A DNA stretch of 24,106 nt from Candidatus Gottesmanbacteria bacterium (GCA_016204905.1 JACQJU010000051.1:1-24106), one strand, 5' to 3'. Counted from the first letter of the stretch, positions 3,444 to 19,081 are shown. Program-made: numbers and translations. The notes: a model not told the origin generated them from the letters alone.

Positions 3444-6155
3444 ATGTACTACCAAAAAAGTATTGCTGAAATTTTAAAAGAACTTCAAACTCACCCCAAC
3501 ACTGGGCTCACTTTCCCCGAAGCCGAAAAGAGACTCAAGAAATATGGCCCCAACATCCTACCCTCCAAAAAACCACCGTCACTTATCTGGAAATTTCTTT
3601 CTCAGTTCAAATCCTTTTTAGTCATCCTACTTCTTGCCGCCACCGCTCTCTCTGCTTTTTTGGGCGACTTTTTAGATGCCATTGCTATCTTTGCTATTGT
3701 TATACTAAACGCAGCAGTTGGCACTCTACAAGAACTAAAAGCAGAAAGAACACTATCGCAATTAGAACAATTAGACCTACCTGAATCATTAGTCTTAAGA
3801 GACGGTCATTTAGAAAAAGTACCCACCGACCAAATAGTTTTAGGAGATATTATTATTTTAGAAGAAGGCGTCAAAATACCCGCCGATGGCCGGATTATCG
3901 AAAATTTTTCTTTATCTATCGATGAAAGCATACTCACCGGAGAATCCCAGACCACTAACAAAATAACCGGCGAGCTTACTACTGATAATATTCCCCTAGG
4001 TGATCAAAAAAATATGATTTTCAAAGATACCCAAGTGGTTTCTGGACGAGGCAAAGCAGTAGTTGTTGCCACTGGATCATCTACCGAAATAGGCAAAATC
4101 GCCTTGAGTCTCGAGGAGGCGCCGGATGAATTATCCCCCTTGTCTGAAGAATTAGATAGAGTAGGCAAAATGCTTACAGGAGCCGTTATTGCTATTGCTA
4201 TTGTCATCTTTATCATTACTTCAATAAGAGGTGTAAAACTTATCGATAGGATCCTGATTGCTGTAGCTCTATCAGTAGCAGCCATTCCCGAAGGACTTCC
4301 AGCCATTGCTACTATCACTCTTGCCCTTGGTGTCGAAAGGCTAGCCAAGAAAAAAACTGTCACCAAAAAGTTAACAGCCGTAGAAACACTCGGTGCTGTG
4401 AAAATCATCGCTACCGATAAAACAGGCACCATCACCGAAAATAAGATGAATGTCACCGATATCGTCACTGCCGATGGAAAACACTTTCAAATAGAGGCAG
4501 AGGGTTACAAAACCAAAGGCACTTTCTTTTCTGACCAAAAACCCATCATCCCTCAAGAATTTAAACAAATTTATGAACTCCTAGAATGTGCTATTTTAGC
4601 CAACAATGCTTTTGTCAAGCTTCAACAAGTTCAGCTTGACACTGAGCAAGGTCGAAGTGTCAAGAAAAAAGATGACACTTTTGAGATTGTCGGCGACACC
4701 ACCGAAGCAGCCTTGCTTATAGCCGGAGAGCGAGCAGGTCTGCCAACTGATAAAATCAAATCCCAAAATAGCCGCATTTTTGAAATGCCTTTTTCCGCAG
4801 ATCGCAAAATGATGAGCGTTGTCGTCAAAATCGATGACACCGATGATGTTTTCATTTTTGTCAAAGGAGCACCTGAGATAGTCATGAACCAAACTACTTT
4901 ATCTTCTCTAGAGAAAACTAAATTTGCCAGAATAGTCAATAACTTAGCCTCCAAAGGACTCCGTACTTTGGCCCTGGGGAGACGTAAACTCAGCAAAAAG
5001 GAGGTCAAGGATGTTTTGGAAAATAACCATTTACCAGAAGACAATCTAGAATTTTTAGGCATTATGGGAGCCAGAGATACACTCCGTCTGGATATTAAAG
5101 ATGCCCTCTTACGGGCAAAATCTGCCGGAATAAAAACCATCATGATTACCGGAGATCATATCAGCACGGCCATATCTATAGGCCTGGAAAGCGGTATTAT
5201 AGAAAAAGGAAATCAAGCCATCGCCGAAAAAGATTTTGAAGATTTGTCTAGAATTCAAATTGCCCACCTCATCAAAACCGATAAATATCGTATTTTTGCC
5301 CGAGTCTCCCCACTGGGCAAACTGAAACTCATTGAGTCGATCAAACTTCTCCCCGCTACCCGTGTCGCAGTCACCGGAGATGGCGTCAATGACGCTCCAG
5401 CACTAAAAGTAGCTCATGTGGGACTAGCTATGGGGTCGGGCACTGATATCGCTCGTGAAGTCTCAGACATGGTTATAACCGATGACAATTATTCAACTAT
5501 CATTGAAGCCATCAAAGAAGGCAGGATCATCTTTGCCAATCTCATCAAATTTATCAGATACCTCATCTCCTGTAATCTGGCCGAAATAGTGGTAGTAACC
5601 CTTGCTGTAATATTTGGCACCCCACTTCCTCTTATCCCCATCCAGCTTCTCTGGATCAATCTCATCACCGATGGTCTTCCTGCCCTTGCCCTCGGCAATG
5701 ATCCGCCTGAATATGACGTGATGCTCAAACCTCCCAGAGCCGGCAATACGCTGCTTCACAAAAGGAGATGGACATTTATGTTCACCGAAGGACTAGTCAT
5801 GGGCATCTCTGTTTTTATGCTCTATCTTTTTTCTCTCTTACGTTATGATCTTCTTACCGCCCAAACTATAGCCTTTACTACTCTTTGTATCACCCAACTC
5901 ATCCATGCTTTATCCAACCGAAGCACCAGAACCTCTTTATTTATATTGGGATTTTTCAGCAACAAGCATCTTATTTATGCCATCATCTTTTCTTTCTTTT
6001 TACAGGTCCTAGTCATCTACACCAACTTTGGCCAAATTATATTTAAAACTGTCACCCTGAACTTTTATCACTGGATAGCTATTATGCTCGTATCGTTTAT
6101 ACCTTTCTTCTTCGTCGAGCTAAAAAAATTAGGCCTCAAACAACTGAAAATATAG
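3444..6155 (+). CDS. P-type cation-transporting ATPase, P2A (Ca2+-ATPase-like), 903 aa
   Basis: TGES, PEGLP, DKTGTITEN, KGAPE, MITGD, TGDGVNDAPAL and LLWINLITDGLPALAL motifs. Confidence 0.96.
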   Translation: MYYQKSIAEILKELQTHPNTGLTFPEAEKRLKKYGPNILPSKKPPSLIWKFLSQFKSFLVILLLAATALSAFLGDFLDAIAIFAIVILNAAVGTLQELKAERTLSQLEQLDLPESLVLRDGHLEKVPTDQIVLGDIIILEEGVKIPADGRIIENFSLSIDESILTGESQTTNKITGELTTDNIPLGDQKNMIFKDTQVVSGRGKAVVVATGSSTEIGKIALSLEEAPDELSPLSEELDRVGKMLTGAVIAIAIVIFIITSIRGVKLIDRILIAVALSVAAIPEGLPAIATITLALGVERLAKKKTVTKKLTAVETLGAVKIIATDKTGTITENKMNVTDIVTADGKHFQIEAEGYKTKGTFFSDQKPIIPQEFKQIYELLECAILANNAFVKLQQVQLDTEQGRSVKKKDDTFEIVGDTTEAALLIAGERAGLPTDKIKSQNSRIFEMPFSADRKMMSVVVKIDDTDDVFIFVKGAPEIVMNQTTLSSLEKTKFARIVNNLASKGLRTLALGRRKLSKKEVKDVLENNHLPEDNLEFLGIMGARDTLRLDIKDALLRAKSAGIKTIMITGDHISTAISIGLESGIIEKGNQAIAEKDFEDLSRIQIAHLIKTDKYRIFARVSPLGKLKLIESIKLLPATRVAVTGDGVNDAPALKVAHVGLAMGSGTDIAREVSDMVITDDNYSTIIEAIKEGRIIFANLIKFIRYLISCNLAEIVVVTLAVIFGTPLPLIPIQLLWINLITDGLPALALGNDPPEYDVMLKPPRAGNTLLHKRRWTFMFTEGLVMGISVFMLYLFSLLRYDLLTAQTIAFTTLCITQLIHALSNRSTRTSLFILGFFSNKHLIYAIIFSFFLQVLVIYTNFGQIIFKTVTLNFYHWIAIMLVSFIPFFFVELKKLGLKQLKI

Positions 6156-6171
6156 AATCCTATTCTTTTCT

Positions 6172-6312
6172 TCACTCATCAAACCTGCTGAATAAAGAAA
6201 AGAAGAGAAAGATAATTGGTAAGACATCGCGGGCGCGAAAAGACGAGAGTACCACTCGCAATATCGAAAAAATCATCCTTCTCCCCTGGTCCTGGTTATT
6301 TGCTTGCAGCAT
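6172..6312 (-). CDS. Possible 46-aa hydrophobic peptide MLQANNQDQGRRMIFSILRVVLSSFRARDVLPIIFLFFSLFSRFDE
   Basis: GAGGT 5 nt before ATG 6312, just after the stop of 6325..6540; TGA 6174-6172. Confidence 0.3.
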   Translation of the reverse strand: MLQANNQDQGRRMIFSILRVVLSSFRARDVLPIIFLFFSLFSRFDE

Positions 6313-6324
6313 ACCGTACCTCAA

Positions 6325-6540
6325 TTACGTCGTGATGCCTCCATAACTCCGATTGTAGGCCTCAATCATTGCTCGAACCCGACGCAATTCCACGCTTACT
6401 CTTGGCACCATCTTTGGAGCCTGACCGCGAAGAGACATAAGCTGCCGCTCTAAATCATACAGCTCACTCACGCCGCCTTTCAAGGTCTGTATGATTATGT
6501 CGAAATTCTGCCTCGCCTCTTGCTCATCAAGTGTCTGCAT
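6325..6540 (-). CDS. Hypothetical helical protein, 71 aa
   Basis: Perfect SD AAAGGAGGTGA upstream of ATG 6540. Confidence 0.7.
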   Translation of the reverse strand: MQTLDEQEARQNFDIIIQTLKGGVSELYDLERQLMSLRGQAPKMVPRVSVELRRVRAMIEAYNRSYGGITT

Positions 6541-6972: not shown

Positions 6973-7202
6973 TATGTTCTCACTCCTTTCGTATCCAGGA
7001 CCACACGCCCGTGATGATAAACTCATCACGAATGTGTGAACCAGGAGTAGAAAGAAAGTAAGTAAACCAGGACTGTAAATGTGCGATGAGAATCTTTTAA
7101 ATCCCGCAATTGAAGAAGAAAAATTCTCAACACCAACAGAAATCTTGCCTCTTATTTGGTAAAACGCTATTTGTCTCGCCTAGAATACAAGATTAATACT
7201 AT

Positions 7203-7231
7203 AGACTACTACAAACCTATTACTTTATCAA
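7203..7231 (-). promoter_or_regulatory. Putative promoter for the orphan island
   Basis: TTGATA (7231-7226), 17 bp, TAGTCT (7208-7203). Confidence 0.4.
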
Positions 7232-7242
7232 ATTTTCTCATC

Positions 7243-7271
7243 TTGACTTACTTCAATCATTTCCCTAAACT
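7243..7271 (+). promoter_or_regulatory. Putative promoter of the TrpR-like gene
   Basis: TTGACT 7243-7248, 17 bp, TAAACT 7266-7271. Confidence 0.6.
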
Positions 7272-7272
7272 A

Positions 7273-7298
7273 TAGTTAAATGTTTTAAAACATTTTCT
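7273..7298 (+). repeat. 26-bp direct repeat, copy 1, with 16-bp palindrome AATGTTTTAAAACATT (operator-like)
   Basis: 25/26 identical to 7764-7789. Confidence 0.9.
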
Positions 7299-7312
7299 CT
7301 AAATATATCAAA

Positions 7313-7759
7313 ATGTCTCAGGTTTCTCGACGTATAATCAAGAAGAATATCGCCCAAAAAATTGACAAACTATTATTGGATTCACTAAATATTAGTTCCC
7401 ATGGAAAGATGAGTTCCGAATTTCTCGACGATTTACTCACTCCCACAGAAAAAATTATGCTCACTAAAAGATTAGCTATAGCCTATTTACTGCTTAAAGG
7501 TTATCCTTATCAGGTCATTAACCAAACACTTAAAGTAAGTAATCCCACTATCAGAACTATAGCGTTAATACTCCAATACAAAGGCAGAGGCCTAAGGTAT
7601 ACGATAGATAAATTATTAAAGGTAGAAAAATGGCGAAATTTCTTTGAAGAGTTGGGAGATCTTGCCGTAGAACTTGTAGGTATGGCTCCCGGGAGCAATT
7701 GGAAGTCGACTAAGTCTTATCTCCATCGCAGAGAAATTCTAAAACAATCCCCTCTTTAA
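7313..7759 (+). CDS. TrpR/YerC-YecD-like helix-turn-helix protein, 148 aa
   Basis: FLDDLLTPTEKIMLTKRLAIAYLLLKGYPYQVINQTLKVSNPTI matches the Trp-repressor-like HTH pattern. Confidence 0.85.
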   Translation: MSQVSRRIIKKNIAQKIDKLLLDSLNISSHGKMSSEFLDDLLTPTEKIMLTKRLAIAYLLLKGYPYQVINQTLKVSNPTIRTIALILQYKGRGLRYTIDKLLKVEKWRNFFEELGDLAVELVGMAPGSNWKSTKSYLHRREILKQSPL

Positions 7760-7763
7760 CATC

Positions 7764-7789
7764 TAGTTAGATGTTTTAAAACATTTTCT
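7764..7789 (+). repeat. 26-bp direct repeat, copy 2, downstream of the TrpR-like gene
   Basis: TAGTTAGATGTTTTAAAACATTTTCT. Confidence 0.9.
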
Positions 7790-7882
7790 TTTATTGTATC
7801 AAAACACATCAATTACACAGAAGATATAAAGTTTCTATAAAACTTTTACTAGAAGATTAAGTAATGCGAAAAAATTTAATGT

Positions 7883-8452
7883 TTACGGCGCGCACAAAGC
7901 CAGATCGGCACTGTTGATGATGCCGTCACTATTTAAATCATAACTGATCTGATAATTGGGACTAGCAGGCACTGCCCCCATCCTTTTGGCTACCTCATTA
8001 CAGGGTATTTGACCGCCACCTCCTGGAGTAGGACTAGACTGTATACCCAGAGTCGGACTCGGCAGTAAAGTGTTGGCACCCGATGTAGTAAACGTCCAGG
8101 GTACACCAGCATTGTCATAAGTCTTATCTCCTATTTTTATCTGGAAATAATAAGTCGTCGTGGGAGTAAGTAACGATAGTACTATACTATGACTTGTCGT
8201 TTCAGTATCACTAGCAAAAAGAGTCAGATTAGAAGCATCAGTACCATACTCAAGTAGGGCCTGTACCGCTTCAGCAGTAGTAAAAGTTATTGTCGCTGAG
8301 TTACTCGTCACTGCTGTAATTTGAACATTTTCTGGACTGCTATTCCCAGCTTTGGCCAAAAGATTATATATCCTATCCCCAGCAATTAGGACTATCCCTA
8401 GAGTCAGAAGAAGTCCAAATATCAGTACAATCGGTTTCGTATATTTACCCAT
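7883..8452 (-). CDS. Membrane-anchored FN3/purple-acid-phosphatase-N-like domain protein with C-terminal dockerin-like Ca-loop
   Basis: N-terminal TM; SATITFTT...LEYG...HSIVLSLLTPTTTYYFQI; C-terminal YDLNSDGIINSAD. Confidence 0.8.
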   Translation of the reverse strand: MGKYTKPIVLIFGLLLTLGIVLIAGDRIYNLLAKAGNSSPENVQITAVTSNSATITFTTAEAVQALLEYGTDASNLTLFASDTETTSHSIVLSLLTPTTTYYFQIKIGDKTYDNAGVPWTFTTSGANTLLPSPTLGIQSSPTPGGGGQIPCNEVAKRMGAVPASPNYQISYDLNSDGIINSADLALCAP

Positions 8453-8455
8453 AAA

Positions 8456-9103
8456 TTATAGTAGAATCAATGCCAATCCAATAACAGTCAATAAAATTCC
8501 CGCTCCCACGGCTATTACCGTCACTTCAGTTGAACCAGATCTAGGCAGTCCCGTAGGATCACTAGTACCCGTAGTTATAGGCGTAGCATCAGCTGGACCT
8601 ACCGTATAAGATGCTGTTATTAGACTATCACAATCTATTATATCCGACGAATCACTTCCTTTTATTATGTTAGAATCAGCTTTACTTCCAGCAACACATT
8701 CCAATGATACCGTCGAAGTACCATTGGCCTTGGCGCTAAATTCTATTGTAGCCAAAACTCCTGTTCCACTTTTTAGCTCTGTACTACCAGGATTCTCAAA
8801 TCCCGAAATAAGATATTTATTCGTACCAGTGATGGGATTAGCCGCAAAGGAGGTATAAAAACCACCGTTGGTAGGAACTGAGTCAATAGACAATATATTG
8901 GGATCATAGACTATCATAGCATCAGCACCCGATGTCTGTTGATTTACTGTATTGATATTGATTGTGACTGTCAATTTTTGACCCACAACAACACCCAAAG
9001 ATGTCGGCTCAAAGGATAGAGTTTGAGCATAAGCTTTCTCTTTTACTAAATTATGAAGTAATAAAAATATAAGAAATAAAAATAGTATTTGTACAATCTT
9101 CAT
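8456..9103 (-). CDS. Cohesin-domain protein with signal peptide and LPxTG-like (LPRSG) C-terminal anchor
   Basis: TLSFEP...LTVTININT...GADAMIVYDPNIL...GVLATIEFSAKANGTSTVSL; LPRSG followed by a TM helix. Confidence 0.85.
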   Translation of the reverse strand: MKIVQILFLFLIFLLLHNLVKEKAYAQTLSFEPTSLGVVVGQKLTVTININTVNQQTSGADAMIVYDPNILSIDSVPTNGGFYTSFAANPITGTNKYLISGFENPGSTELKSGTGVLATIEFSAKANGTSTVSLECVAGSKADSNIIKGSDSSDIIDCDSLITASYTVGPADATPITTGTSDPTGLPRSGSTEVTVIAVGAGILLTVIGLALILL

Positions 9104-9774
9104 CTATTTATATTTATAGTGGCCTCCCCGACATTTCCTAATATATTATTAGATGTGGAGTTTTGTATGATATTAGACAAGTCCTTCCCAGTTGGGCTGA
9201 CCAGGAAACTAATAGTCGTCTGACCAACCTGCTTAGCTTTCAGCTGCAAAGTCGCAAAAAGTATCTCGCCGGCAAGCGGCGTCGGTTGAGGCTCAAAAGT
9301 TACTCCAGTAATATAGATCCTACTCTTATCTTTATCCACAACATTTTTGAGATAAGAAGGAAAAGCATCGCCGAAAGAAGCCTTACCACCAACTACTTCG
9401 ATATAAGCGGGATCAAAAGATAGTACAGCATCAACACCATCCAGTGAGTAAGAAGAAGCAACCAACATAATATCTAATGTTGCGCTTTGTCCTAATTTTA
9501 GGTCTAGACTAGCGGGAACTAAATATAGTCTCCCCTCCTTAACATTACTCACCTGCTGATTCTGAGTAGTAGTTTCTGTAATAGTTGGTGCTGGCGTTTT
9601 TCTATTGGCTAACCTTATATAGACTACCACCAGAAGAAGTATCGCCAAAATACCCACCAATATATATATTTTTTTAGTCACAATAGACTTAGGCACGTCT
9701 GGTGGTGAATTTTGGTCCATATTTGGACTCATATCTAGAACAATAACTTGATCTTGATTGTTTTCTGTATTCAT
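9100..9774 (-). CDS. Single-pass membrane cohesin-domain protein
   Basis: TM then LYLVPAS...LDGVDAVLSFDPAYIEV...FATLQLKAKQVGQTTISF; ATGA overlap with the next gene. Confidence 0.85.
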   Translation of the reverse strand: MNTENNQDQVIVLDMSPNMDQNSPPDVPKSIVTKKIYILVGILAILLLVVVYIRLANRKTPAPTITETTTQNQQVSNVKEGRLYLVPASLDLKLGQSATLDIMLVASSYSLDGVDAVLSFDPAYIEVVGGKASFGDAFPSYLKNVVDKDKSRIYITGVTFEPQPTPLAGEILFATLQLKAKQVGQTTISFLVSPTGKDLSNIIQNSTSNNILGNVGEATININR

Positions 9775-9786
9775 TTTATAATTTTA

Positions 9787-9826
9787 CATTTCATTGTAAC
9801 ATTGGAACATTGTCCATTGTTGCATT
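9787..9826. repeat. CATTG repeat tract with period about 8 in an operon spacer
   Basis: CATTG at 9792, 9800, 9808 and 9815. Confidence 0.7.
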
Positions 9827-9827
9827 C

Positions 9828-11825
9828 TCACTCATCATCCGGCTTCGTCGACAAAGTGACTACCATAATCCCATTATCCGCGGCATTTACTATATTATTA
9901 TAGTCCAAATCTGCCACTATCAAATCTTCCCCTGTCGTTTTACCCATTCTACTTTTTAGCAGTGAGACATCGGCAGCATTCACTATACAATCTTGTCCTA
10001 AATTACTAGCTGGATCTGGCAAATCTCCTCCTGCAAGAGGCTCAGCAGTCCAGTCAAAATTTTGGGCGGCAGGATTATTATTTTGGAGAACAAATTTATT
10101 TACCATCTTGGTACTTCGCTGCTTTTCCCCTTTAACTGATAATGAATAACTTTTATCAGCACTTGCATAAAGTAGAGTTACCCAACCTCCTTGCTCTACA
10201 GGAACATCCACCGGATCAATCTCCTGATATAATACTTTAAAGGATGTGCCTTCTTTAGGATAGTAGACTCCATTACTGTCTGCTGACATGATGATATCCT
10301 TATAGAAATACTCACCAGTCCCAGGTGCTTGGCAGGAACCCTCCGCAGCACCGCTTTCTGCGGCCACTACCAAATCAACAATCTTGAGTCTCACTTTGAT
10401 ATCTGGAATTCCCTCTGCCCCTTGTATTTTTATGCCAAACCGCACCTGAGGATTAACTGCAGCGCCACCAGTAGGCGTAGGCGTCGCTGTCAATGTCGGC
10501 CCACCTGGTGTAATTGTCGGTGTCGGTGTTCCAGTCGCTCCACCTCCGCCTCCAATATTTATCGTCAAAGAATCTGTATCACCTATAGGTAGATCAAATT
10601 TTGTCAGTTCATCATCATCTCCAGGTGTTGGTGTCGGTCCACTTGGCGTATTAGTTGGTCCAGCTGTAGGAAAAACTACATTTCCGGTAAATATAAATTT
10701 ATCGATACCCACATAATTTCCTGTTGAGGGACTATTATGTTTGCCTACCACATAGACCCTCACTCGATAAGTGGCATTTTTATCCAGATTATCAAAAAAT
10801 ATTTCATCCGTAGTATAAGCCACTTTCGCGGCATAAAGATTTAATCGTTTCCTGGTATTAGTTTTAGCAGTAAGATTCCTTAGAACTACTCTCACTCGAC
10901 CAGCATCGGGAGATTTTCTCAAGATTACCTTGACACTTTTTGCCTTAAACTTGATCCGGGCATTATTTTTCTTCACATTAGCTCTCTTATAGGTAGTACT
11001 TCCATCCTTACCCGAGGACCACGTACCCTTATATTTCACTTTTTTATCATTTTCTTGGATTGTAGTAGTACCTTGACCCGCTTCAAACACCGCCACCCCC
11101 GCGTCTTCTGCATCTAGAACCAACTCATCAGCCGCTTCCTCAGCCTCAGTTATACCATCATCGTCAGGATCCTCGGTAGGAGTCGCGGTGGGAATTCTGG
11201 TAGGAGTATTGGTGGGATTGGCAGTTCCTGCAAAGATAACAAATTTATCAAATCCGACCCATCTATCTGATGAAGCACTATTTTTAGTACCGAGGACTTT
11301 TACCCTGACTCTATAAACCAAAGAAGGATCTAAATTCGTATAGGTATATGTATCAAATAATGCCGCTCCTTGTTTATAGAGGTCTTTAGTTTGAGATACC
11401 GCAACAGCTCCGCCTATTTGTTTGATTATGATTTTTGCTTTACCGGCATTATTAGATTTCCTTAGCGTTACGCTTACCTTGTTAGTGCCGGTAAATTTTA
11501 AGCGCACTGAATTTTCAGGACTACCCGTTTTGGAGGAGGCATAGGTCCCATCTCCCCCAGGTTGATTCTTAATCCAGGTAGAATTAGACCCAGACGGTTT
11601 ATATTTCACCGAAGAAGAATTATCCTGATATGTCCCAGGCTTCACTGCCGGGACAGCCGCATCTTCTCTATCCAAAGCGCCTTCTTCGCTAGATTCACCC
11701 GTAGTAAGACTTTCTTGAGCAGTCACGATACCAGCCGATCGCCCCCCAACCACCAAAAAAGCCATAAAACATAATACTATCAAATTAAAAATTATAAATA
11801 ATCTAGATTTTATTTGTTTTTTCAT
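9828..11825 (-). CDS. Surface protein with two tandem CBM-like beta-sandwich repeats, acidic and PT linkers and a C-terminal dockerin-like domain; probable start ATG 11825
   Basis: Repeat YQDNSSSVKYK...VGFDKF / IQENDKKVKYK...VGIDKF; C-terminal DCIVNAAD...ADLDYNNIVNAAD. Confidence 0.8.
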   Translation of the reverse strand: MKKQIKSRLFIIFNLIVLCFMAFLVVGGRSAGIVTAQESLTTGESSEEGALDREDAAVPAVKPGTYQDNSSSVKYKPSGSNSTWIKNQPGGDGTYASSKTGSPENSVRLKFTGTNKVSVTLRKSNNAGKAKIIIKQIGGAVAVSQTKDLYKQGAALFDTYTYTNLDPSLVYRVRVKVLGTKNSASSDRWVGFDKFVIFAGTANPTNTPTRIPTATPTEDPDDDGITEAEEAADELVLDAEDAGVAVFEAGQGTTTIQENDKKVKYKGTWSSGKDGSTTYKRANVKKNNARIKFKAKSVKVILRKSPDAGRVRVVLRNLTAKTNTRKRLNLYAAKVAYTTDEIFFDNLDKNATYRVRVYVVGKHNSPSTGNYVGIDKFIFTGNVVFPTAGPTNTPSGPTPTPGDDDELTKFDLPIGDTDSLTINIGGGGGATGTPTPTITPGGPTLTATPTPTGGAAVNPQVRFGIKIQGAEGIPDIKVRLKIVDLVVAAESGAAEGSCQAPGTGEYFYKDIIMSADSNGVYYPKEGTSFKVLYQEIDPVDVPVEQGGWVTLLYASADKSYSLSVKGEKQRSTKMVNKFVLQNNNPAAQNFDWTAEPLAGGDLPDPASNLGQDCIVNAADVSLLKSRMGKTTGEDLIVADLDYNNIVNAADNGIMVVTLSTKPDDE

Positions 11826-11826
11826 A

Positions 11827-12432
11827 TTAAGGTGTAGGCGATGGTGTAGCCGTGGGATCACCAGATCCAGGCTCTATTCCCACCACTTGTAACAACCGCA
11901 CCCCATTGATATCAGTAAGTTCGTCAGCAGTAGGATAGCGTATAATACCATCGCCATCCTCCTTGGCTTTAAATGTGATTGTTGCCATCAGCATCTCTCC
12001 ACTTGATAATGCTGGTGTTAAGCGGCGGGAAACCAATACTAAACGTAGGTAATTAAATTGGTCATTATATGGCTGATCCACCTGTGTCAGTATGACATCA
12101 GTAAAAGGCTTATTACTACCTACTTCTGGTGCGATCGTAGGTGCTGTATAAAATTTACTTTTATCATAAAGTATCCGGAAATCGACTCCTGAGACTTTTA
12201 CATTATTATTAGTAGATTTTAGTTTGGCTTTTACCGTAAAAGTTTCATCCTTATCAGGACTATTATTACTACTTTCCAATATAAAATCAGCTTGTCCGGC
12301 AAGAGCCGCTCTTGGTCTTATCTCCTGCTGCTGTCTTGTCAAGTAAAGAGCAATAGGCAACGAAACCAGCAAAAGTAGCAGGAGTAATATTCCTATTTTC
12401 TGCTGTCTAGTTAAATTTTTTAGATATTTCAT
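11827..12432 (-). CDS. Membrane-anchored cohesin-domain protein ending in a short PT linker; start ATG 12432
   Basis: TM plus QQQEIRPRAA; VSGVDFRILYDKSK...MATITFKAKEDGDGII. Confidence 0.85.
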   Translation of the reverse strand: MKYLKNLTRQQKIGILLLLLLLVSLPIALYLTRQQQEIRPRAALAGQADFILESSNNSPDKDETFTVKAKLKSTNNNVKVSGVDFRILYDKSKFYTAPTIAPEVGSNKPFTDVILTQVDQPYNDQFNYLRLVLVSRRLTPALSSGEMLMATITFKAKEDGDGIIRYPTADELTDINGVRLLQVVGIEPGSGDPTATPSPTP

Positions 12433-12445
12433 CAAAGTTCTTTCT

Positions 12446-12514
12446 TCTAATTTCTAACCTCTAATTTCTAAGCTCTAATAGCCAATGACTAATGACTAAT
12501 GACTAATGACTAAT
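12446..12514. repeat. Heptamer tandem tract in an operon spacer
   Basis: TCTAANN x5 (12446-12480), then AATGACT x4 (12484-12511). Confidence 0.9.
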
Positions 12515-12515
12515 C

Positions 12516-14333
12516 TCACTCATCATCCTCATCTATCTCATCAGCTTCGCTTGTTGCCTTAAGGCTCGTCGCATTTCTTCTCCACTTTTCAAAATCTGCC
12601 AAATTCACCAAAAAAGTATTTGGGTCTCTTTTGGCTCCACCATCGGCACAAACACCATTGGCGTTTCTTCTCCTATTGCGATTTGGCACCGTTCCAAATT
12701 GCTTTTTGAGGCGATTGAAGTCTTTGGCAGTGACCGTACCATCACAATTATAATCTCCCTTTCCTCTCCCTTTACCTTGGTAACCAGTCACAAACTCATT
12801 GCACTTCTTGGGGCAAACTTGCCCTGTGGGAAATGGTGTTGGAGTTACCGCCGCTCCTCCGCTACCACCCCCGCCCCCAGAGGCGCAAGTTCCAGCCGGT
12901 GGAGTCGCCCCATTATTTAAAACTGAATATACCGCACGGCAAGCATCCGCTGATCCCCAAGCATACTGAGTAGTGATACCCGGAGCGCTATCATCAGCAC
13001 TACTCTCCAGTGTACTTTTTACCTGAGTATTACTCAGAGATGAGTTAGCCGCCAATATCAGTCCTGCCACGCCAGCTACCTGTGGTGTCGCCATGGAAGT
13101 GCCATAAGAATAAGCATAATTTTTTTGTGGCGTCGGTGTTGGAGGTTGACCAGTAATAAGACTCGCCGGCCATAAAGACAGTATGCCCCCGGCAGCACAG
13201 CTTGCATCACTGCCCGCTGGACAATTGAAATATCCTCCAGGTGCCGCTATATTTACCCAACTACCATATTCAGAATAGGGAGCAAGAGTTCCATCCGTTT
13301 TAGTAGCCGCTACAGATATCACATTGGGAGAGGCAGCCGGATAGACTTTGGGATTAGAAGCATAGGATTTACCATTGCTCGTAGTATAGGCACAGCCCTC
13401 ATTATTGTCATTATTGGCAGCACCGCAATTACCCGCTGCCGCTACCAAAAGAGCCCCACTATCCCAAGCAGATTGCATAGCATTGTTTATCATGGTTATA
13501 ATCTCTGAATCTAAGCTATTTTCTATCTGCCCCCAGCTCATATTGATCACTTTGGCTCCCCTAGAAGCGGCATATTTTACTCCTTCCAGTGCTACATCTA
13601 TACCGCCTCCGCCATCATTATCCAGCACTTTTACGCTCATCAGTTTCACTCCCCATCCTACTCCCGCTATACCTTTACTATTATTGGTAACAGCTCCTAT
13701 GATCCCCGCCACATGCGTACCATGCCCAGCATCATCTGCCCGTGGTTTAGTTTTATTACAGACTACCCCATTGCCTTCCGCCACGCATCCCACATAGTCA
13801 TCATCGGCTATCTTACCGGCCAAATCAGGATGATTTACATCGACTCCCGTATCCACTACCGCAATTTTGACATCATCAGTCTTATCATTTACATCTCCCA
13901 ACAGATCCCAGGCACCATTTGTATTCGCTCCTACCTTCATAGCTCCCAGGCCCCAAAGTTTATTTATATATTCATCATCTACCGTCTTAGTAGCAAAAAC
14001 CTTGGGCACCCCTCCTGCATAAGCTACGTTGGGATCGGCTTTTGCCGCCGCTATAGCCGCAGCAACATCTTCCACTCTATAAACTACGGCATCGCCATTA
14101 CCCGCTAGTCCTCCCGCATAACTGGACTCGGCTATCCTGGCACTTACACCAAGTATCATTTCGGCATTCGTAGTACTTTTAAATTTTACTATGATTTTAT
14201 TTGGAACTTGAGGAGCTGATGGCTCATATGTAGGAGTAAAAACGGTTATCTGGGCGATGGAGATATTTCTCGATAAGAGAATAAAGGAACAAACCCACAC
14301 CAAAACCGTGGCAAATTTTAGACGCTTAGACAT
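12516..14333 (-). CDS. S8 subtilisin-like serine protease with signal peptide, propeptide and C-terminal dockerin-like domain, 605 aa
   Basis: VVDTGVD, HGTHVAG, AAGN and GTSMATPQVAG catalytic motifs; GDYNCDGTVTAKD. Confidence 0.95.
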   Translation of the reverse strand: MSKRLKFATVLVWVCSFILLSRNISIAQITVFTPTYEPSAPQVPNKIIVKFKSTTNAEMILGVSARIAESSYAGGLAGNGDAVVYRVEDVAAAIAAAKADPNVAYAGGVPKVFATKTVDDEYINKLWGLGAMKVGANTNGAWDLLGDVNDKTDDVKIAVVDTGVDVNHPDLAGKIADDDYVGCVAEGNGVVCNKTKPRADDAGHGTHVAGIIGAVTNNSKGIAGVGWGVKLMSVKVLDNDGGGGIDVALEGVKYAASRGAKVINMSWGQIENSLDSEIITMINNAMQSAWDSGALLVAAAGNCGAANNDNNEGCAYTTSNGKSYASNPKVYPAASPNVISVAATKTDGTLAPYSEYGSWVNIAAPGGYFNCPAGSDASCAAGGILSLWPASLITGQPPTPTPQKNYAYSYGTSMATPQVAGVAGLILAANSSLSNTQVKSTLESSADDSAPGITTQYAWGSADACRAVYSVLNNGATPPAGTCASGGGGGSGGAAVTPTPFPTGQVCPKKCNEFVTGYQGKGRGKGDYNCDGTVTAKDFNRLKKQFGTVPNRNRRRNANGVCADGGAKRDPNTFLVNLADFEKWRRNATSLKATSEADEIDEDDE

Positions 14334-14393
14334 GCTTTACTTTAATAGTGACAAAAACTACAAAAGAAGTCAATCCTTCAATTCCATTCAGGA

Positions 14394-14519
14394 TTGACCC
14401 TGAGCGAAGTCGAATGGGTCAATGGGAATTAGTTAGTAAGTCAATTAGTTACTTAGAAAAGGGCAACTTAAGAAGTAACGAAATAACGAAATAACTAACT
14501 GGTGATCCGCCAGCTGGCG
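14394..14519. repeat. Stack of palindromic and repeat elements upstream of the S8 operon
   Basis: TTGACCC-TGAGCGAAGTCGAAT-GGGTCAA 14394-14422; TTAG/TAAC inverted arms 14431-14500; CGCCAGCTGGCG 14508-14519. Confidence 0.8.
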
Positions 14520-14634
14520 AAGAAAAAGTAGATTATGATGAGTATATACTAAATACGTAGGCTGCAAACTTGAGCAACTGAAGTACAGATTGTTTTATCA
14601 TCATATAAAAATTAACTTCTCATCTCCCTCAACC

Positions 14635-14659
14635 CCTTATAATATTCTGCTCGAGCTAT
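14635..14659 (+). repeat. 25-bp direct repeat downstream of the PaaX-like gene
   Basis: CCTTATAATATTCTGCTCGAGCTAT, 20/25 identical to 15410-15434. Confidence 0.8.
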
Positions 14660-14687
14660 ATTCTACAATGTATACTCAGAGATTTTA

Positions 14688-15377
14688 TTAATCTGACAAT
14701 TCGAAATGTGTACGTAAGGAACCATCATCTTCTATTTGTTGCGCGATTATATATTGTACTGTAAATGCCACACCATACAACTCTCTCAAAAATTCTACTT
14801 CCTCAAAACAAGGGTAAGGAGATACATAGAGACTTTCCTGTAGTCGATATAGTCCCAGCTGTTCCAGACGCAGACGGAAAATATCCCTCACTCTTTTATA
14901 TTTATTTGGTATATCGAAAGCTACTAGTCTCCACCTCTTATCCCACTTCTTGGGCTTTACCTGTTTCATGGTTTCCAATTGATAATTCAACGCCTTGATT
15001 CTGCCATTTTTTCTTATGGTTACCTTCACCGTACCATCATCTTGCTCTTTTATAGTGACATACTTTTGTTTAGCCATTTGCGTAAGTACACTTTTAGTAC
15101 GCCATCGGCTAAATTTACCGCCTCCGATCAAAGTCAAACCAATTGCTGGACCAGCCCCAGGAAAAGCAAATACTAATCCTAAGACTCCAGCAGCTGCCAG
15201 GACTTTTAGGAGGGTACGAACTTTGGGATATAAAGTTTCCTTTTTCTCTTCCTCAACTGGCTGTTTAAATATCTTTGCTGCCTTCTCCCAATCGATATGG
15301 GCATAGGGATTAGCCACACTGACTCTTTTTTTCCTTACTTTTATTGATCTAAGTATTTTTCTTCGTGCACTCATCAC
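14688..15377 (-). CDS. PaaX-like winged-helix / Cas2-like-fold regulator (CPR type, not CRISPR-linked)
   Basis: WDKRWRLVAFDIP...RDIFRLRLEQLGLYRLQESLYVSPYPC. Confidence 0.85.
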   Translation of the reverse strand: MMSARRKILRSIKVRKKRVSVANPYAHIDWEKAAKIFKQPVEEEKKETLYPKVRTLLKVLAAAGVLGLVFAFPGAGPAIGLTLIGGGKFSRWRTKSVLTQMAKQKYVTIKEQDDGTVKVTIRKNGRIKALNYQLETMKQVKPKKWDKRWRLVAFDIPNKYKRVRDIFRLRLEQLGLYRLQESLYVSPYPCFEEVEFLRELYGVAFTVQYIIAQQIEDDGSLRTHFELSD

Positions 15378-15409
15378 TTTTCTCCCATCAATTCAGTCTA
15401 ATAAACTAT

Positions 15410-15445
15410 CCTTATAAATTCAAGCTCGAGCTATTATTTATAAGG
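15410..15445. promoter_or_regulatory. 36-bp co-centred palindrome upstream of the PaaX-like gene (operator-like)
   Basis: CCTTATAAAT-TCA-AGCTCGAGCT-ATT-ATTTATAAGG. Confidence 0.7.
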
Positions 15446-15555
15446 TTAATTATAAAATCAAAGATTATATAAACAGATGGTGAATCAATAAAAAAGTGGT
15501 TTTTTGTTTCTAATTCTTAGCAACCTATGTATACCCTCGGCTATATATATATATA

Positions 15556-16146
15556 CTAAAAAGCAATCGAGGAAAGTATCTTCTGATAATCACTACCTAC
15601 CAATGATTTCTGCTGGGCTATATAGACTAGATAACTTTTACCCATAAGTAATGTCACTTGCGCACTATCAACAGTATTCGGGTCACCTTGAGTAAAGACC
15701 GCTACCTTCCTCCCCTCTATATTTGTATATTGCAAATCATGAACCTGGTCAATAAGATACGATCGAGCAGCAGTCGAAGTAAGATTTGCAGTATTGTTAG
15801 GCGTGGTGTAAGAAGATATCCAATCTTCCAAAGTAGTACGATTTTTAAGTGGAAAGATTACGACCTGTATACCCTCATAAGACTGCTTAAAGGGGGGTGT
15901 TAAAACTAAAAAAAGTAAATGGTTGCCATTCTCCCGAGTAGTATTTTTCAATATATAATTTACTGGGTAATGGAAAGATAAACCATATTTATTATCTCTA
16001 TAGACTTGCCCAGACATAGTTGGGGCAAATGTTATAGTAGGTTGAGAAATCTTCTGCTGAAGATTATTTTGCTTTCCGTAAGAAAATAATCCCCCGATCA
16101 GCATAAGAAATATAATTCCAAGTAGTATATAAGTATTTTTTTTCAT
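15556..16146 (-). CDS. Membrane-anchored PsbP/Mog1-like domain protein
   Basis: N-terminal TM; YRDNKYGLSFHYP motif. Confidence 0.7.
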   Translation of the reverse strand: MKKNTYILLGIIFLMLIGGLFSYGKQNNLQQKISQPTITFAPTMSGQVYRDNKYGLSFHYPVNYILKNTTRENGNHLLFLVLTPPFKQSYEGIQVVIFPLKNRTTLEDWISSYTTPNNTANLTSTAARSYLIDQVHDLQYTNIEGRKVAVFTQGDPNTVDSAQVTLLMGKSYLVYIAQQKSLVGSDYQKILSSIAF

Positions 16147-16163
16147 AAGTATTTACCTAATAT

Positions 16164-17177
16164 TTAATTATTGCACTGGCTAGCAAATCCACACTTTCCC
16201 CCCTGACATCCCAGTGACGTCTTACAATCGCAGGCGCTCGTACAGGTATCACACAGGTCACCTTCGCGCTTGCAACTCCCCCCACCGCCTTTAGCCCCAA
16301 CATCAGAACAGCAAGTTTGGCCACCCAAACAACCTGCCTGGCCATGACCTACTTGATCTGCACCACATGTAGAACCTTTTACACACGACCCACCATACGT
16401 ACAACCGCATTCACCAGTGCAGCTATCGCCTTCATCACCTTCTCCAATTGTAGGAGCGGGATTTCCACCGCATTTATTAGGCCATTGCGCCTCGTCTCTT
16501 CCACATTTGGCATCACATGCGCTCCAGTGCGCATCTGCGTCTGCCCGACTACACCCATCTCCTACACCCCAGTCAGTGCAGCAATCACCACCGCTTATTG
16601 TACATCTGGCTATATCAAATCCTTTACTACAGCTTCCTGGAGCAGATGTCGCTGTTGGTACTCCCGGCTTACTAGTCGGCTTTACTGTCGGTGTTTTAGT
16701 TGGCGGCTTTGTAGGTCCTCCTGGACAACCTGCACAACCAGCACAGTTTAGATTTCCACAAGACTTGGGCACAACGCAAAATTTTGGACATTGATCTTCA
16801 CTTTGCGTTGGAACAGGTGTCTCAGATGGAACAGGTGTAGGAGAAAGACAACCAGAGCAACCAATACATGAACTATTTCCACAAGAGTCAGGCACAACAC
16901 AAAAATTTGGACATTTAGGATCCTCTGTAGGAGAAGGTGCAAATACCTGAAATCCTCCCTGTTGTGTACCTACCTGAGTAAAAAATGCCCGGGGAGATAG
17001 CTGAAAAACTCCCGCAAATTGATTACCGGCAAAAAAGGCAGCCACAAATATAGAAGCAATTATTACTAGTAGATTAAAAACAGATAAGTGGTATCTCTTT
17101 TTTAAAATTTCCCCAAAATCCTCATTGAGTATAGATTTTTTCTTATGACCCTCCATATCATCCAAATTTTCGCTCAT
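16164..17177 (-). CDS. Membrane-anchored cysteine-rich modular surface protein (36 Cys in 337 aa)
   Basis: TM; duplicated CPxFCVVPxSCGNxxCxGCxGC; PT linkers; three further 8-Cys modules. Confidence 0.85.
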   Translation of the reverse strand: MSENLDDMEGHKKKSILNEDFGEILKKRYHLSVFNLLVIIASIFVAAFFAGNQFAGVFQLSPRAFFTQVGTQQGGFQVFAPSPTEDPKCPNFCVVPDSCGNSSCIGCSGCLSPTPVPSETPVPTQSEDQCPKFCVVPKSCGNLNCAGCAGCPGGPTKPPTKTPTVKPTSKPGVPTATSAPGSCSKGFDIARCTISGGDCCTDWGVGDGCSRADADAHWSACDAKCGRDEAQWPNKCGGNPAPTIGEGDEGDSCTGECGCTYGGSCVKGSTCGADQVGHGQAGCLGGQTCCSDVGAKGGGGSCKREGDLCDTCTSACDCKTSLGCQGGKCGFASQCNN

Positions 17178-17183
17178 ATATAT

Positions 17184-17297
17184 TTATTTCTTCTTTGAAC
17201 GATCTTTCAGTGTAGGATATAAAATAATCGCCAAAGCTAATATTAAAATAGCCCCGGTTAAATAAAAAGCTTGTAACGGATCAATTGTTATATTCAT
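17184..17297 (-). CDS. Small membrane peptide, 37 aa, MNITIDPLQAFYLTGAILILALAIILYPTLKDRSKKK (not in ORF track)
   Basis: ATGA overlap with the stop of 17294..17500; one TM helix plus a basic tail. Confidence 0.7.
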   Translation of the reverse strand: MNITIDPLQAFYLTGAILILALAIILYPTLKDRSKKK

Positions 17298-17500
17298 TTT
17301 ACTTCTTGTAATAAAAATATACTAATATACATACATAATAGAGCCATTCCAACACCTGTAGTTACTACCAATATATTAATAGCAGTATTTCCCTCAAGTA
17401 TAGGTACCACAAGACCAGCAAAAAATACTAACCCCAGATTGCCAAATATTTCCGATATTCTCTCGATTTGAGCCGAATTTAATCTAAACGAACTTATCAC
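17294..17500 (-). CDS. Small two-TM membrane protein, 68 aa
   Basis: Two hydrophobic helices; GTG start; coupled to the downstream peptide. Confidence 0.7.
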   Translation of the reverse strand: MISSFRLNSAQIERISEIFGNLGLVFFAGLVVPILEGNTAINILVVTTGVGMALLCMYISIFLLQEVK

Positions 17501-17560
17501 TTTTCTTCAGTATTTCACTTCATTTTGAAATTGTCAAATCGTTTTTATCAATCGTACCCC

Positions 17561-17621
17561 CAAAACCACTTCGGAAGTGGACTTAGCTTCGCACATCGGG
17601 ATTAATCCCACACTTCTTCAT
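17561..17621 (+). repeat. 61-bp direct repeat, copy 1 (empty site)
   Basis: 54/61 identical to 18331-18412 once a 20-bp insert and a 1-bp indel are removed; contains CCACTTC-G-GAAGTGG. Confidence 0.9.
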
Positions 17622-17686
17622 TACCACCCCATGAAATCTCTCCGATCAACTGGAAATATCCACGTCACTAACTTGCCACCCTTTGG

Positions 17687-17737
17687 GTATTAGCTTCACA
17701 CACCGTATTAGCTTCACACACCGGGTGTGTAAAGCTA
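17687..17737. repeat. REP-like hairpin with an 18-bp tandem duplication of its left arm
   Basis: GTATTAGCTTCACACACC x2 (17687-17722); TAGCTT-C-ACACACC-G-GGTGTGT-A-AAGCTA 17709-17737. Confidence 0.85.
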
Positions 17738-18313
17738 TTTCTGTTTCAGTCTCTCAAGCAGTAAATCAAATTTTTTGTACTTTTTATCATAGGCGACATT
17801 AAAATGCCCTGCATTCTCCACTATCGTGATATTGCCACCCAGTTTTCTAGCTATTTCCTCTCCCTCAGATACCGGAGTATCATCGTTGGTAGACTGGTAT
17901 ATCTCAAAGTATCGACTAGCTTTTTTTATCTTCTCCCAATCAAATGGTTTCTCATGGAAAGAGTCTATTTTTTTTGAACCTTTGGCATACCAATGATAAA
18001 CCATCCATGGCGCGACCAGAAATGTCGCCCGGATTGATACCTTAAAACTAGGAAACAATTGAAAGAGGAACACCCCGCCTCTACTGTGACTAACAAACAT
18101 AGTATCTTCGTCTACAAATTTTCTATACTGATCAAATGTACCGAACCAATCACCCAGCACATGTCCTCCATAACTGGCATCCTGCTCTTTCGGGATAGGA
18201 AACTGAGGGACTAAAACACGATGACCCAATTTTTCCAGTTCTCCCTTCAGCCAGGGAAACCAATTTTCTTCTGGATTGCCATAGCTGCCATGGATGATAA
18301 AAATATTCGCCAT
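17735..18313 (-). CDS. Alpha/beta hydrolase, RBBP9/YdeN family; probable start ATG 18313
   Basis: IIHGSYGNPEENWFPWL, SHSRGG nucleophile elbow, STNDD, AGHFN. Confidence 0.9.
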   Translation of the reverse strand: MANIFIIHGSYGNPEENWFPWLKGELEKLGHRVLVPQFPIPKEQDASYGGHVLGDWFGTFDQYRKFVDEDTMFVSHSRGGVFLFQLFPSFKVSIRATFLVAPWMVYHWYAKGSKKIDSFHEKPFDWEKIKKASRYFEIYQSTNDDTPVSEGEEIARKLGGNITIVENAGHFNVAYDKKYKKFDLLLERLKQK

Positions 18314-18330
18314 TTTCACAGTTACTCACC

Positions 18331-18412
18331 CAAGACCACTTCGGGTGTGGACTTAGCCCTGCCTGCCGGCAGGCAGGTTCGCACATCGGGATTTACTCCA
18401 CCACTTCCTCAT
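18331..18412 (+). repeat. Direct repeat, copy 2 (filled site), carrying perfect 20-bp palindrome CCTGCCTGCCGGCAGGCAGG at 18358-18377
   Basis: Direct alignment to 17561-17621. Confidence 0.92.
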
Positions 18413-19034
18413 CTACATAACCTTCATCTGTTCCACTATCACCAACAACAGCTTCAGTATCTTCATCTTTTGCCGGAATAGTTTCTCCAGTTGCTGAAAC
18501 CTCATAAAACTTGAAATTTTCTAGAATTGCTTCATAAATAGCATCCAGTTTACCTGCGCCATCAGGATTTTCCTCCAAAAGAAAAATAATATCATCATAA
18601 AGCGTTGCCGTAACTACTTTGGGAGCTGGTGCACTAATTCTCACCTTTTTAGCTTCTTTGCCACCCCACGTCGTATCCACACTATTACCACCACTTATCT
18701 CCTTATCGCCTTTTAACCAACCATCAAGCGAAGTATAAGTAGTATCTTTGGCCCAAATTATGATATTTCCAGAAAGTCCACTTTTCGTCAGTTCCACATG
18801 CGCATAATTTTCCTCATCTTCTTCATGATTATCTATCATAAAATCTTTTGGGTATTCAAAAGTGAAACCCATCGGATCTTTCCAGGTAGTAAACTCCTCC
18901 ATCGGTTGAATAGATTGTGGACTCTGACCTATTGGTGAAGTTATAGATCTCCCTTTTATGAAAAAATATCCTCCTGCCGCGAGTCCTGCTAAAACAATTA
19001 CTATGATTATCCCTATGACAACCTTTTTATTCAT
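18393..19034 (-). CDS. Membrane-anchored PsbP-like domain protein with acidic tail; probable start ATG 19034
   Basis: MNKK plus TM; WKDPMGFTFEYPKD motif. Confidence 0.75.
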   Translation of the reverse strand: MNKKVVIGIIIVIVLAGLAAGGYFFIKGRSITSPIGQSPQSIQPMEEFTTWKDPMGFTFEYPKDFMIDNHEEDEENYAHVELTKSGLSGNIIIWAKDTTYTSLDGWLKGDKEISGGNSVDTTWGGKEAKKVRISAPAPKVVTATLYDDIIFLLEENPDGAGKLDAIYEAILENFKFYEVSATGETIPAKDEDTEAVVGDSGTDEGYVDEEVVE

Positions 19035-19081
19035 AAGTACATTATACATAAATTGTTAAATTGTTATAACAATGTAACCAT

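Follow-up and report, generated by a model that had tools for sequence, protein, structure and literature searches.

The DNA analysed here, called the window throughout, is a stretch of 24,106 nucleotides (nt) from a Candidatus Gottesmanbacteria genome (GCA_016204905.1 JACQJU010000051.1:1-24106). It forms contig C136 of genome bin G000, which comes from groundwater metagenomes, comprises 0.92 Mb in 142 contigs, is 75% complete and has a G+C content of 39%. Its gene families point to an ultra-small bacterium of the CPR/Patescibacteria type. Three unrelated genes in the window, coding for a TrpR-like regulator, a short PaaX-like protein and a serine hydrolase, each lie between two copies of a direct repeat (R1, R2 and R3 respectively). 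The original prediction was that such boxed genes are one-gene cassettes gained and lost by recombination between their boxes or, alternatively, that the boxes serve two-site looping autoregulation. The features concerned are as follows, where REP stands for repetitive extragenic palindromic and RAYT for REP-associated tyrosine transposase.

7254-7313, + strand: R1a, upstream box, with a 22-nt palindrome core at 7276-7297; ends at the start codon of the TrpR-like gene
7313-7759, + strand: TrpR-like regulator gene, 148 amino acids (aa), Pfam Trp_repressor
7745-7804, + strand: R1b, downstream box, core at 7767-7788; starts within the last codons of the TrpR-like gene and faces the end of a convergent gene
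14635-14671, - strand: R2a, downstream copy, partly decayed, 16 nt past the stop codon of the PaaX-like gene, in a 354-nt gap before an S8 peptidase gene
14688-15377, - strand: short PaaX-like gene, 229 aa, PaaX_M / Cas2-like domain
15410-15446, - strand: R2b, upstream of the PaaX-like gene, a 36-nt palindrome centred on GCTCGAGC
17559-17624, - strand: R3a, putative REP-like copy without the 20-nt insert, with a decayed PsbP-like C-terminus (NEEVWD-stop, 17602-17622)
17687-17737, - strand: GC-rich hairpin at the hydrolase stop codon, related to a hairpin flanking a RAYT-like gene on contig C120
17735-18319, - strand: serine hydrolase gene, 194 aa, Pfam Ser_hydrolase, apparently a boxed insertion
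18329-18416, - strand: R3b, putative REP-like element together with the final codons (DEEVVE-stop) of the PsbP-like gene at 18393-19049, with a 20-nt palindrome insert at 18358-18377

A repeat search recovered the three predicted pairs at their predicted positions, each with a dyad core and each enclosing one gene. Gapped local alignments of the pairs were compared with those of 300 shuffles. The R1 copies (7254-7313 and 7745-7804) are 78% identical over 60 nt, with 36 of 41 positions identical in the gapped core (7273-7313 and 7764-7804), and have an alignment score of 57 against a null maximum of 35. The R2 copies (14635-14671 and 15410-15446) are 73% identical over 37 nt and score 35 against a null maximum of 30. 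R3 consists of a first part (17559-17587 and 18329-18357) with 90% identity and a second part (17585-17611 and 18375-18401) with 85% identity; these are split in R3b by a clean 20-nt insertion at 18358-18377, and the pair scores 45 against a null maximum of 35. The repeats had been taken to be private to their genes. This holds for R2, which has no other copy in G000, but not for R1, whose 22-nt palindrome occurs at exactly five genomic sites, nor for R3, which was observed in four to five copies and whose 20-nt insert was observed in 36-38 copies. Rfam and tRNA scans gave a single match, a tRNA-Thr, and none at the repeats.

Boxing of genes was also observed elsewhere in the genome, far above the frequency expected by chance. 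The flank test used crude gene calls based on open reading frames (ORFs) and covered the 278 genes that have 25 nt or more of intergenic DNA on each side. Direct flank repeats with a score of at least 34 were found for 24 of these genes, where 0.6 would be expected from random intergenic pairs, and the rate falls from 8.6% when one gene is enclosed to 4.1% for two, 1.6% for three and about 0% beyond. The boxed set is mixed. It contains DNA-binding regulators (the TrpR-like protein, two PaaX-like proteins and one TrmB protein with a helix-turn-helix (HTH) domain), four Y1 transposase genes and two toxin genes, together with several housekeeping genes whose flanks are GC-rich hairpins, shared regions of ribosome-binding site and start codon, or AT-rich low-complexity motifs. 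On balance, we favour the view that this recurring layout joins two different things, namely operator modules of regulator genes (R1 and R2) and a REP-type insertion (R3).

The TrpR-like protein matches Trp_repressor (PF01371) with 40.3 bits against a cut-off of 27 and is thus a member of the TrpR family, while its score of 26.1 bits against the YerC/YecD (HisR) model TIGR02531 lies below the cut-off of 42.2. A promoter-like sequence (TTGACT-17-TAAACT, 7243-7271) puts the predicted transcription start at the R1a core. The 22-nt palindrome at this position (GAAAATGTTTTAAAACATTTTC) is conserved with the gene across relatives and is a candidate operator. When up to three mismatches are allowed, all five of its genomic sites are intergenic and shuffled sequences give 0-1 sites; two of the five flank the TrpR-like gene and the other three are solo sites at the trpD/trpC, hom/asd and argF/GNAT gene junctions. 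Both boxes fold weakly as RNA (-3.7 kcal/mol for R1a and -5.5 kcal/mol for R1b) and neither was found in the terminator scan. R1b was therefore rejected as an intrinsic terminator, and an origin of R1 as the relic of a tandem duplication was dropped because similarity is weak beyond the 41-nt core. The two copies are identical at 25 of 26 core positions and decayed in their flanks, a pattern that speaks for selection on both cores rather than for a recent recombination product.

TrpR-family repressors bind palindromes of about 20 bp and often autoregulate; HisR (YerC) uses lineage-specific 20-bp palindromes and is autoregulated in about half of genomes (PMC9413887). Taken together with the layout and the weak RNA folds, this binding habit makes an operator pair of the TrpR-like gene the most likely reading of R1. 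The arrangement was also found at other members of the family. Loci were compared across G000 and 40 relatives, all of which belong to other genera or families and none to the same genus, and a locus was counted as boxed when its upstream and downstream flanks scored above the 99th percentile of mismatched pairs. TrpR-like loci were boxed in 20 of 35 cases, and several further loci carry short perfect palindromes. Four of the five TrpR-like paralogues in G000 are bracketed, each by its own different palindrome, and the orthologue in G002 has the same core as R1 at two flanking and three solo sites. A conserved R1 regulon was not found: G002 has no true trpD and its solo sites lie elsewhere, and no palindrome is present at trpD in G015 or G016. 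Closer relatives were sought in metagenome contigs, which gave one match with 32% identity, and by exact-protein look-ups, which gave the same context only or no match.

The layout resembles that of the family of E. coli TrpR and HisR (PMC9413887) in that a small HTH protein is associated with a lineage-specific palindrome of about 20-22 bp, one copy of which lies at its own promoter, and further G000 sites lie in amino-acid biosynthesis operons. It differs in that most family members examined here have a second site just past the stop codon. Furthermore, the window protein is below the YerC/YecD cut-off, its sites are not conserved between genera and the solo sites partly resemble dispersed repeats.

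The PaaX-like protein matches Pfam PaaX_M with 67 bits, but only this domain matches, since the PaaX equivalog TIGR02277 scores 20.1 bits against a cut-off of 264.6. A promoter-like sequence (TTGATT-17-AATAAT, 15461-15433) overlaps R2b. R2a is unstructured as RNA (z = 0.35) and was not found in the terminator scan, and its role as an intrinsic terminator was rejected from the RNA fold. Among PaaX-like loci of G000 and its relatives, 29 of 36 are boxed, including all three in G000. The boxes are lineage-specific palindromes with a short central dyad and outer arms. The distance from the stop codon to the start of the downstream box is no more than about 35 nt at most boxed loci (median about +7, range -27 to +172), and the gene that comes next differs in identity, distance and strand. 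The layout thus recurs with these two regulator families, and as a control, homologues of the hydrolase were boxed in only 2 of 20 loci of the same relatives, one being the window itself. A conserved partner gene of about 350 aa next to PaaX-like genes proved to be an artefact of truncated loci, the proteins being unrelated.

PaaX, a repressor that responds to phenylacetyl-CoA, likewise has a central Cas2-like PaaX_M domain and a palindrome overlapping its own promoter. The protein of the window is shorter (229 aa), scores only 20 bits where the equivalog model requires 264 and has no paa operon; its gene is bracketed by two sites, and such genes reach up to 14 copies per genome in some relatives. 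We noticed that PaaX-like genes recur by the S8 peptidase / cohesin-dockerin operon, at its head in the window (7883-15377), at its tail in G006 (L153, C8) and on the same contig in G024 (C115), which suggests a regulatory link. In addition, contig C70 of G000 has a 138-nt direct repeat with 96% identity (4152-4289 and 5127-5264) that holds a second PaaX-type palindrome, the C80 type, and brackets a unit of two genes (ORFs of 140 and 91 aa).

The hydrolase box is of another kind. The orthologue of the PsbP-like gene in G007 ends in EEEVVE-stop, so that the relic in R3a can be taken as a duplicated end of the PsbP-like gene. The R3 layout, a GC-rich hairpin followed by ACT(T)AGC and then by T.GACAC.TC.G, occurs five times in the genome, and one of these occurrences is the promoter-side flank of a RAYT-like Y1 transposase gene on contig C103, where the hairpin sequence differs from that of R3. 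Three of the five R3-type elements carry a perfect 20-nt palindrome (CCTGCCTGCCGGCAGGCAGG) as an insert at an identical position following TTAGC; its copies in the window are at 18358-18377 and 1156-1175. A tandem duplication of an 18-nt unit (gtattagcttcacacacc, twice; 17687-17722) leads into the hairpin that lies at the hydrolase stop codon.

Nine genes with a Y1_Tnp domain (PF01797) were found in the genome, on contigs C71, C103, C106 (two), C139 (two), C120, C99 and C9, which is unusually many for a bin of this size. Eight of them are RAYT-like: they code for proteins of 214-238 aa, are 25-61% identical to each other rather than identical multi-copy genes, and each has its own flanking hairpins, which are present in 3-7 genomic copies. 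For the two of the eight that were tested, NF047646 (REP-associated tyrosine transposase) is the best NCBIfam match, with 47-51 bits against a cut-off of 80. No RAYT-like gene carrying the R3 hairpin itself was found in this 75% complete genome. From the layout shared with the C103 flank and the hairpin-flanked RAYT-like genes, R3 is best read as a REP-like element. The box of the hydrolase has the look of an insertion scar. A known system close to this one is that of REP/REPIN elements and their RAYTs (PMC3116915, PMC3337134, PMC5581495). These are likewise short GC-rich extragenic hairpins in small families, accompanied by divergent Y1 genes with their own flanking hairpins, which are not identical multi-copy insertion sequences, and in G000 one such flank has the R3 layout. 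The present case differs in having eight RAYT-like genes in less than 1 Mb with only 3-7 hairpin copies each, and in proteins of greater length (214-238 aa) that fall short of the NCBIfam RAYT cut-off. Some copies of the CCTGCCTGCCGGCAGGCAGG palindrome were observed to have paired changes that preserve the dyad, and 16 of 36 lie inside crude ORF calls. One copy is apparently in the leader of a prepilin-like ORF (C22:297), and a similar core is also present in G002.

The genes around the boxes form a backbone with the order 143-aa gene, PsbP-like gene (218 aa), 68-aa gene, 337-aa gene, PsbP-like gene (196 aa), S8 peptidase gene, cohesin gene, 677-aa gene, 224-aa gene, cohesin gene and fn3/dockerin gene, and other genera of the family retain much of it. 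G007 keeps the 143-aa gene, PsbP-like gene, 337-aa gene, S8 peptidase, cohesin and 677-aa gene in this order, and G009 keeps the same backbone ends and the second PsbP-like gene. The hydrolase gene is missing at the syntenic site in both. In G007 the PsbP-like gene is followed by a 6-nt gap, a small ORF and then the 337-aa homologue, and an opposite-strand two-gene unit stands before the S8 peptidase gene in place of the PaaX-like gene. In G009 the 196-aa PsbP-like gene is followed by 103 nt and then the S8 peptidase gene, with neither a PaaX-like gene nor an R2-like palindrome. The PaaX-like gene of G006, which is at the opposite end of the same operon, has a flank score of 22 and lies below the threshold for a box. 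The absence of the hydrolase and PaaX-like genes from a conserved order in two genera indicates that they are lineage-specific insertions or deletions. Empty alleles, expected if boxed genes come and go, were therefore found for both genes whose syntenic sites were compared, but the single residual repeat expected along with them was present neither in the 6-nt gap of G007 nor in the 103-nt gap of G009.

Excision joints were looked for in assembled contigs from four runs of one groundwater study. No joint matching any box was found and the contigs span all three boxes intact. The joints that these contigs do contain lie in repeats present in multiple copies, namely 14369-14422 and the 20-nt palindrome, and their sides measure 21-26 nt. 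Assembled contigs drop rare variants, and this negative is therefore weak evidence.

For R1 and R2, two-site autoregulation, conceivably by looping, is the best fit. This part of the original prediction agrees with the family-wide layout, the overlaps with promoter-like sequences and the kept cores of the TrpR-like and PaaX-like boxes; it does not cover the hydrolase box. Each unit would consist of the gene for a small DNA-binding protein with one copy of its own palindrome at the promoter and another shortly after the stop codon. We infer that a dimer bound to the upstream site would repress the gene's own promoter. The downstream site could be a second operator able to loop with the first; alternatively, the protein bound there may form a roadblock and so insulate the unit from adjacent genes. 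These regulator modules appear to be accessory and to be gained or lost as blocks. The hydrolase gene, in turn, is probably a one-gene insertion at the 3' end of the conserved PsbP-like gene, its box being made up of the duplicated last six to seven codons of that gene and a REP-like hairpin, in the layout seen at the RAYT-like flank; the route by which it was inserted is likewise something we infer.

Several observations weigh against this interpretation. The set of R1 sites is not kept between genera, as the solo sites are in the trp, hom-asd and argF operons in G000 and adjoin unrelated genes (L33, L10 and VirD4-like) in G002, and G015 and G016 have a tight trpD-trpC junction. The half-decayed state of R2a is compatible with a site under weak selection. 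The genome has eight intergenic copies of the C80 PaaX-type palindrome. Furthermore, the genome-wide count of boxed genes was built on crude ORF calls, and because the relatives are from other genera, gene loss is indistinguishable from gain.

A different explanation, which we consider unlikely, is a partnership of protein and repeat, in which TrpR- and PaaX-type palindromes are copied like REPs, the boxed genes encode their binding partners, which perhaps mobilise or maintain the repeats, and the units move as cassettes. The two flanking and three solo R1 sites in G000 and the same numbers beside unrelated genes in G002 are consistent with it, as are the eight copies of the C80 palindrome and the RAYT-like genes of the same genome, which also have two flanking and a few dispersed hairpin copies. 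An asymmetric arm of about 30 nt is conserved in all ten R1-type sites of G000 and G002, and its orientation is fixed relative to the regulator gene; together with the tight junctions in relatives, this makes the solo R1 sites also resemble dispersed copies of an element. Its other support comes from the trp operon of G000 (contig C32, locus L003), where three junctions have three different palindromes: the C80 PaaX-type palindrome between trpG and trpD (5196-5255), the R1 TrpR-type between trpD and trpC (6288-6339) and a long AT-rich inverted repeat between trpC and trpF (7111-7251). The same junctions overlap or are at most about 5 nt long in G015 and G016, which points toward the regulator palindromes as mobile repeats. 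The missing PaaX-like module in G009 and G007, with a PaaX-like gene scoring as unboxed at the other operon end in G006, would also fit.

The evidence against such a partnership is as follows. Neither protein has a catalytic recombinase or nuclease domain above family threshold, and nothing beyond a partial Cas2-like segment was recognised. Solo copies of R2 are absent, copy numbers are small, and the contigs of the four runs contain no excision joints. All three solo R1 sites in G000 are in amino-acid biosynthesis operons, which is also compatible with regulation. We regard it as rather doubtful that palindromes of the TrpR and PaaX types are mobile in the manner of REPs, with the genes they bracket encoding their partner proteins, which would add two new partnerships to that of RAYT and REP in one tiny genome. 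If this were so, both box-gene-box units and solo palindromes would spread into gene junctions, as at all three of the trp operon.

A single cassette system, with each boxed gene entering and leaving by recombination between its boxes like integron cassettes or att sites, is very improbable. Boxing far above chance, the hydrolase and PaaX-like genes as insertions or deletions in a conserved order, and the duplicated target gene end in the hydrolase box, as expected of gene-end integration, are in its favour. Integron cassettes with attC sites are similar in that single genes of promoterless size lie between imperfect palindromes, and at least two of the genes here are accessory. However, the three boxes, compared by sequence and layout, have no common sequence, structure or attC architecture and fall into two repeat classes, and there is neither an array nor an integron integrase: as had been predicted, Pfam gave no integrase or transposase among the window ORFs scanned, although the genome has its Y1 transposase genes. 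The boxes of the regulators are tied to the family of the protein that the gene encodes and take in its own promoter, whereas hydrolase homologues generally have none. The copies of a pair have diverged outside the palindromic core, as in old selected sites rather than recent recombination products, the empty sites in G007 and G009 have no residual box, and contigs from four samples span all boxes with no matching joints. The idea of one system for one-gene cassettes was thus not borne out; it survives in the weaker form of accessory single-gene units. Ordinary transcription signals, that is, similar terminators or promoters in neighbouring intergenic regions and no protein partner, are a most improbable explanation. 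In their favour, GC-rich hairpins with T runs or shared ribosome-binding-site-and-start regions flank several boxed genes elsewhere in the genome. Against them stand the poor or absent RNA folding of R1 and R2a, the lineage specificity of the palindromes, which invariably come in pairs at homologues of these two regulator families, and the near absence of matches between random intergenic pairs.

To our knowledge, almost nothing is known of how ultra-small uncultivated bacteria regulate their genes. Two families of regulators that at most loci have their own site on both sides of the gene are directly testable protein-DNA pairs, and the boxed regulators suggest a portable, self-insulating expression unit. 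A genome with eight RAYT-like genes and palindrome families at junctions that are tight in relatives is also a compact case for the spread of short palindromes, and it offers the chance to ask whether DNA-binding proteins besides Y1 transposases take part in that spread.

A toxin-antitoxin pair in the window had been described as a weaker version of the same architecture.

1186-1665: PIN gene, with a presumed antitoxin ORF at 1584-1877; member of the claimed toxin-antitoxin pair

Its flank repeat is present but marginal, with a length of 21 nt and a score of 30 where the null maximum is 27, and the pair lies outside the interval 7273-18412 to which the prediction referred.

Elsewhere in G000, a TTCGCA/TGCGAA-rich element of 68-70 nt was found three times on contig C25 (1063-1130, 1442-1511 and 2664-2731), where its copies occupy consecutive intergenic regions around a 96-aa ORF and a dnaX-like gene. 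The hairpin element at 14369-14422 has GACCC...GGGTC arms and three copies in G000. In contigs of each of the four runs its depth is 5-10 times that of the surroundings, many contigs break there, and other organisms in the samples probably have it too.

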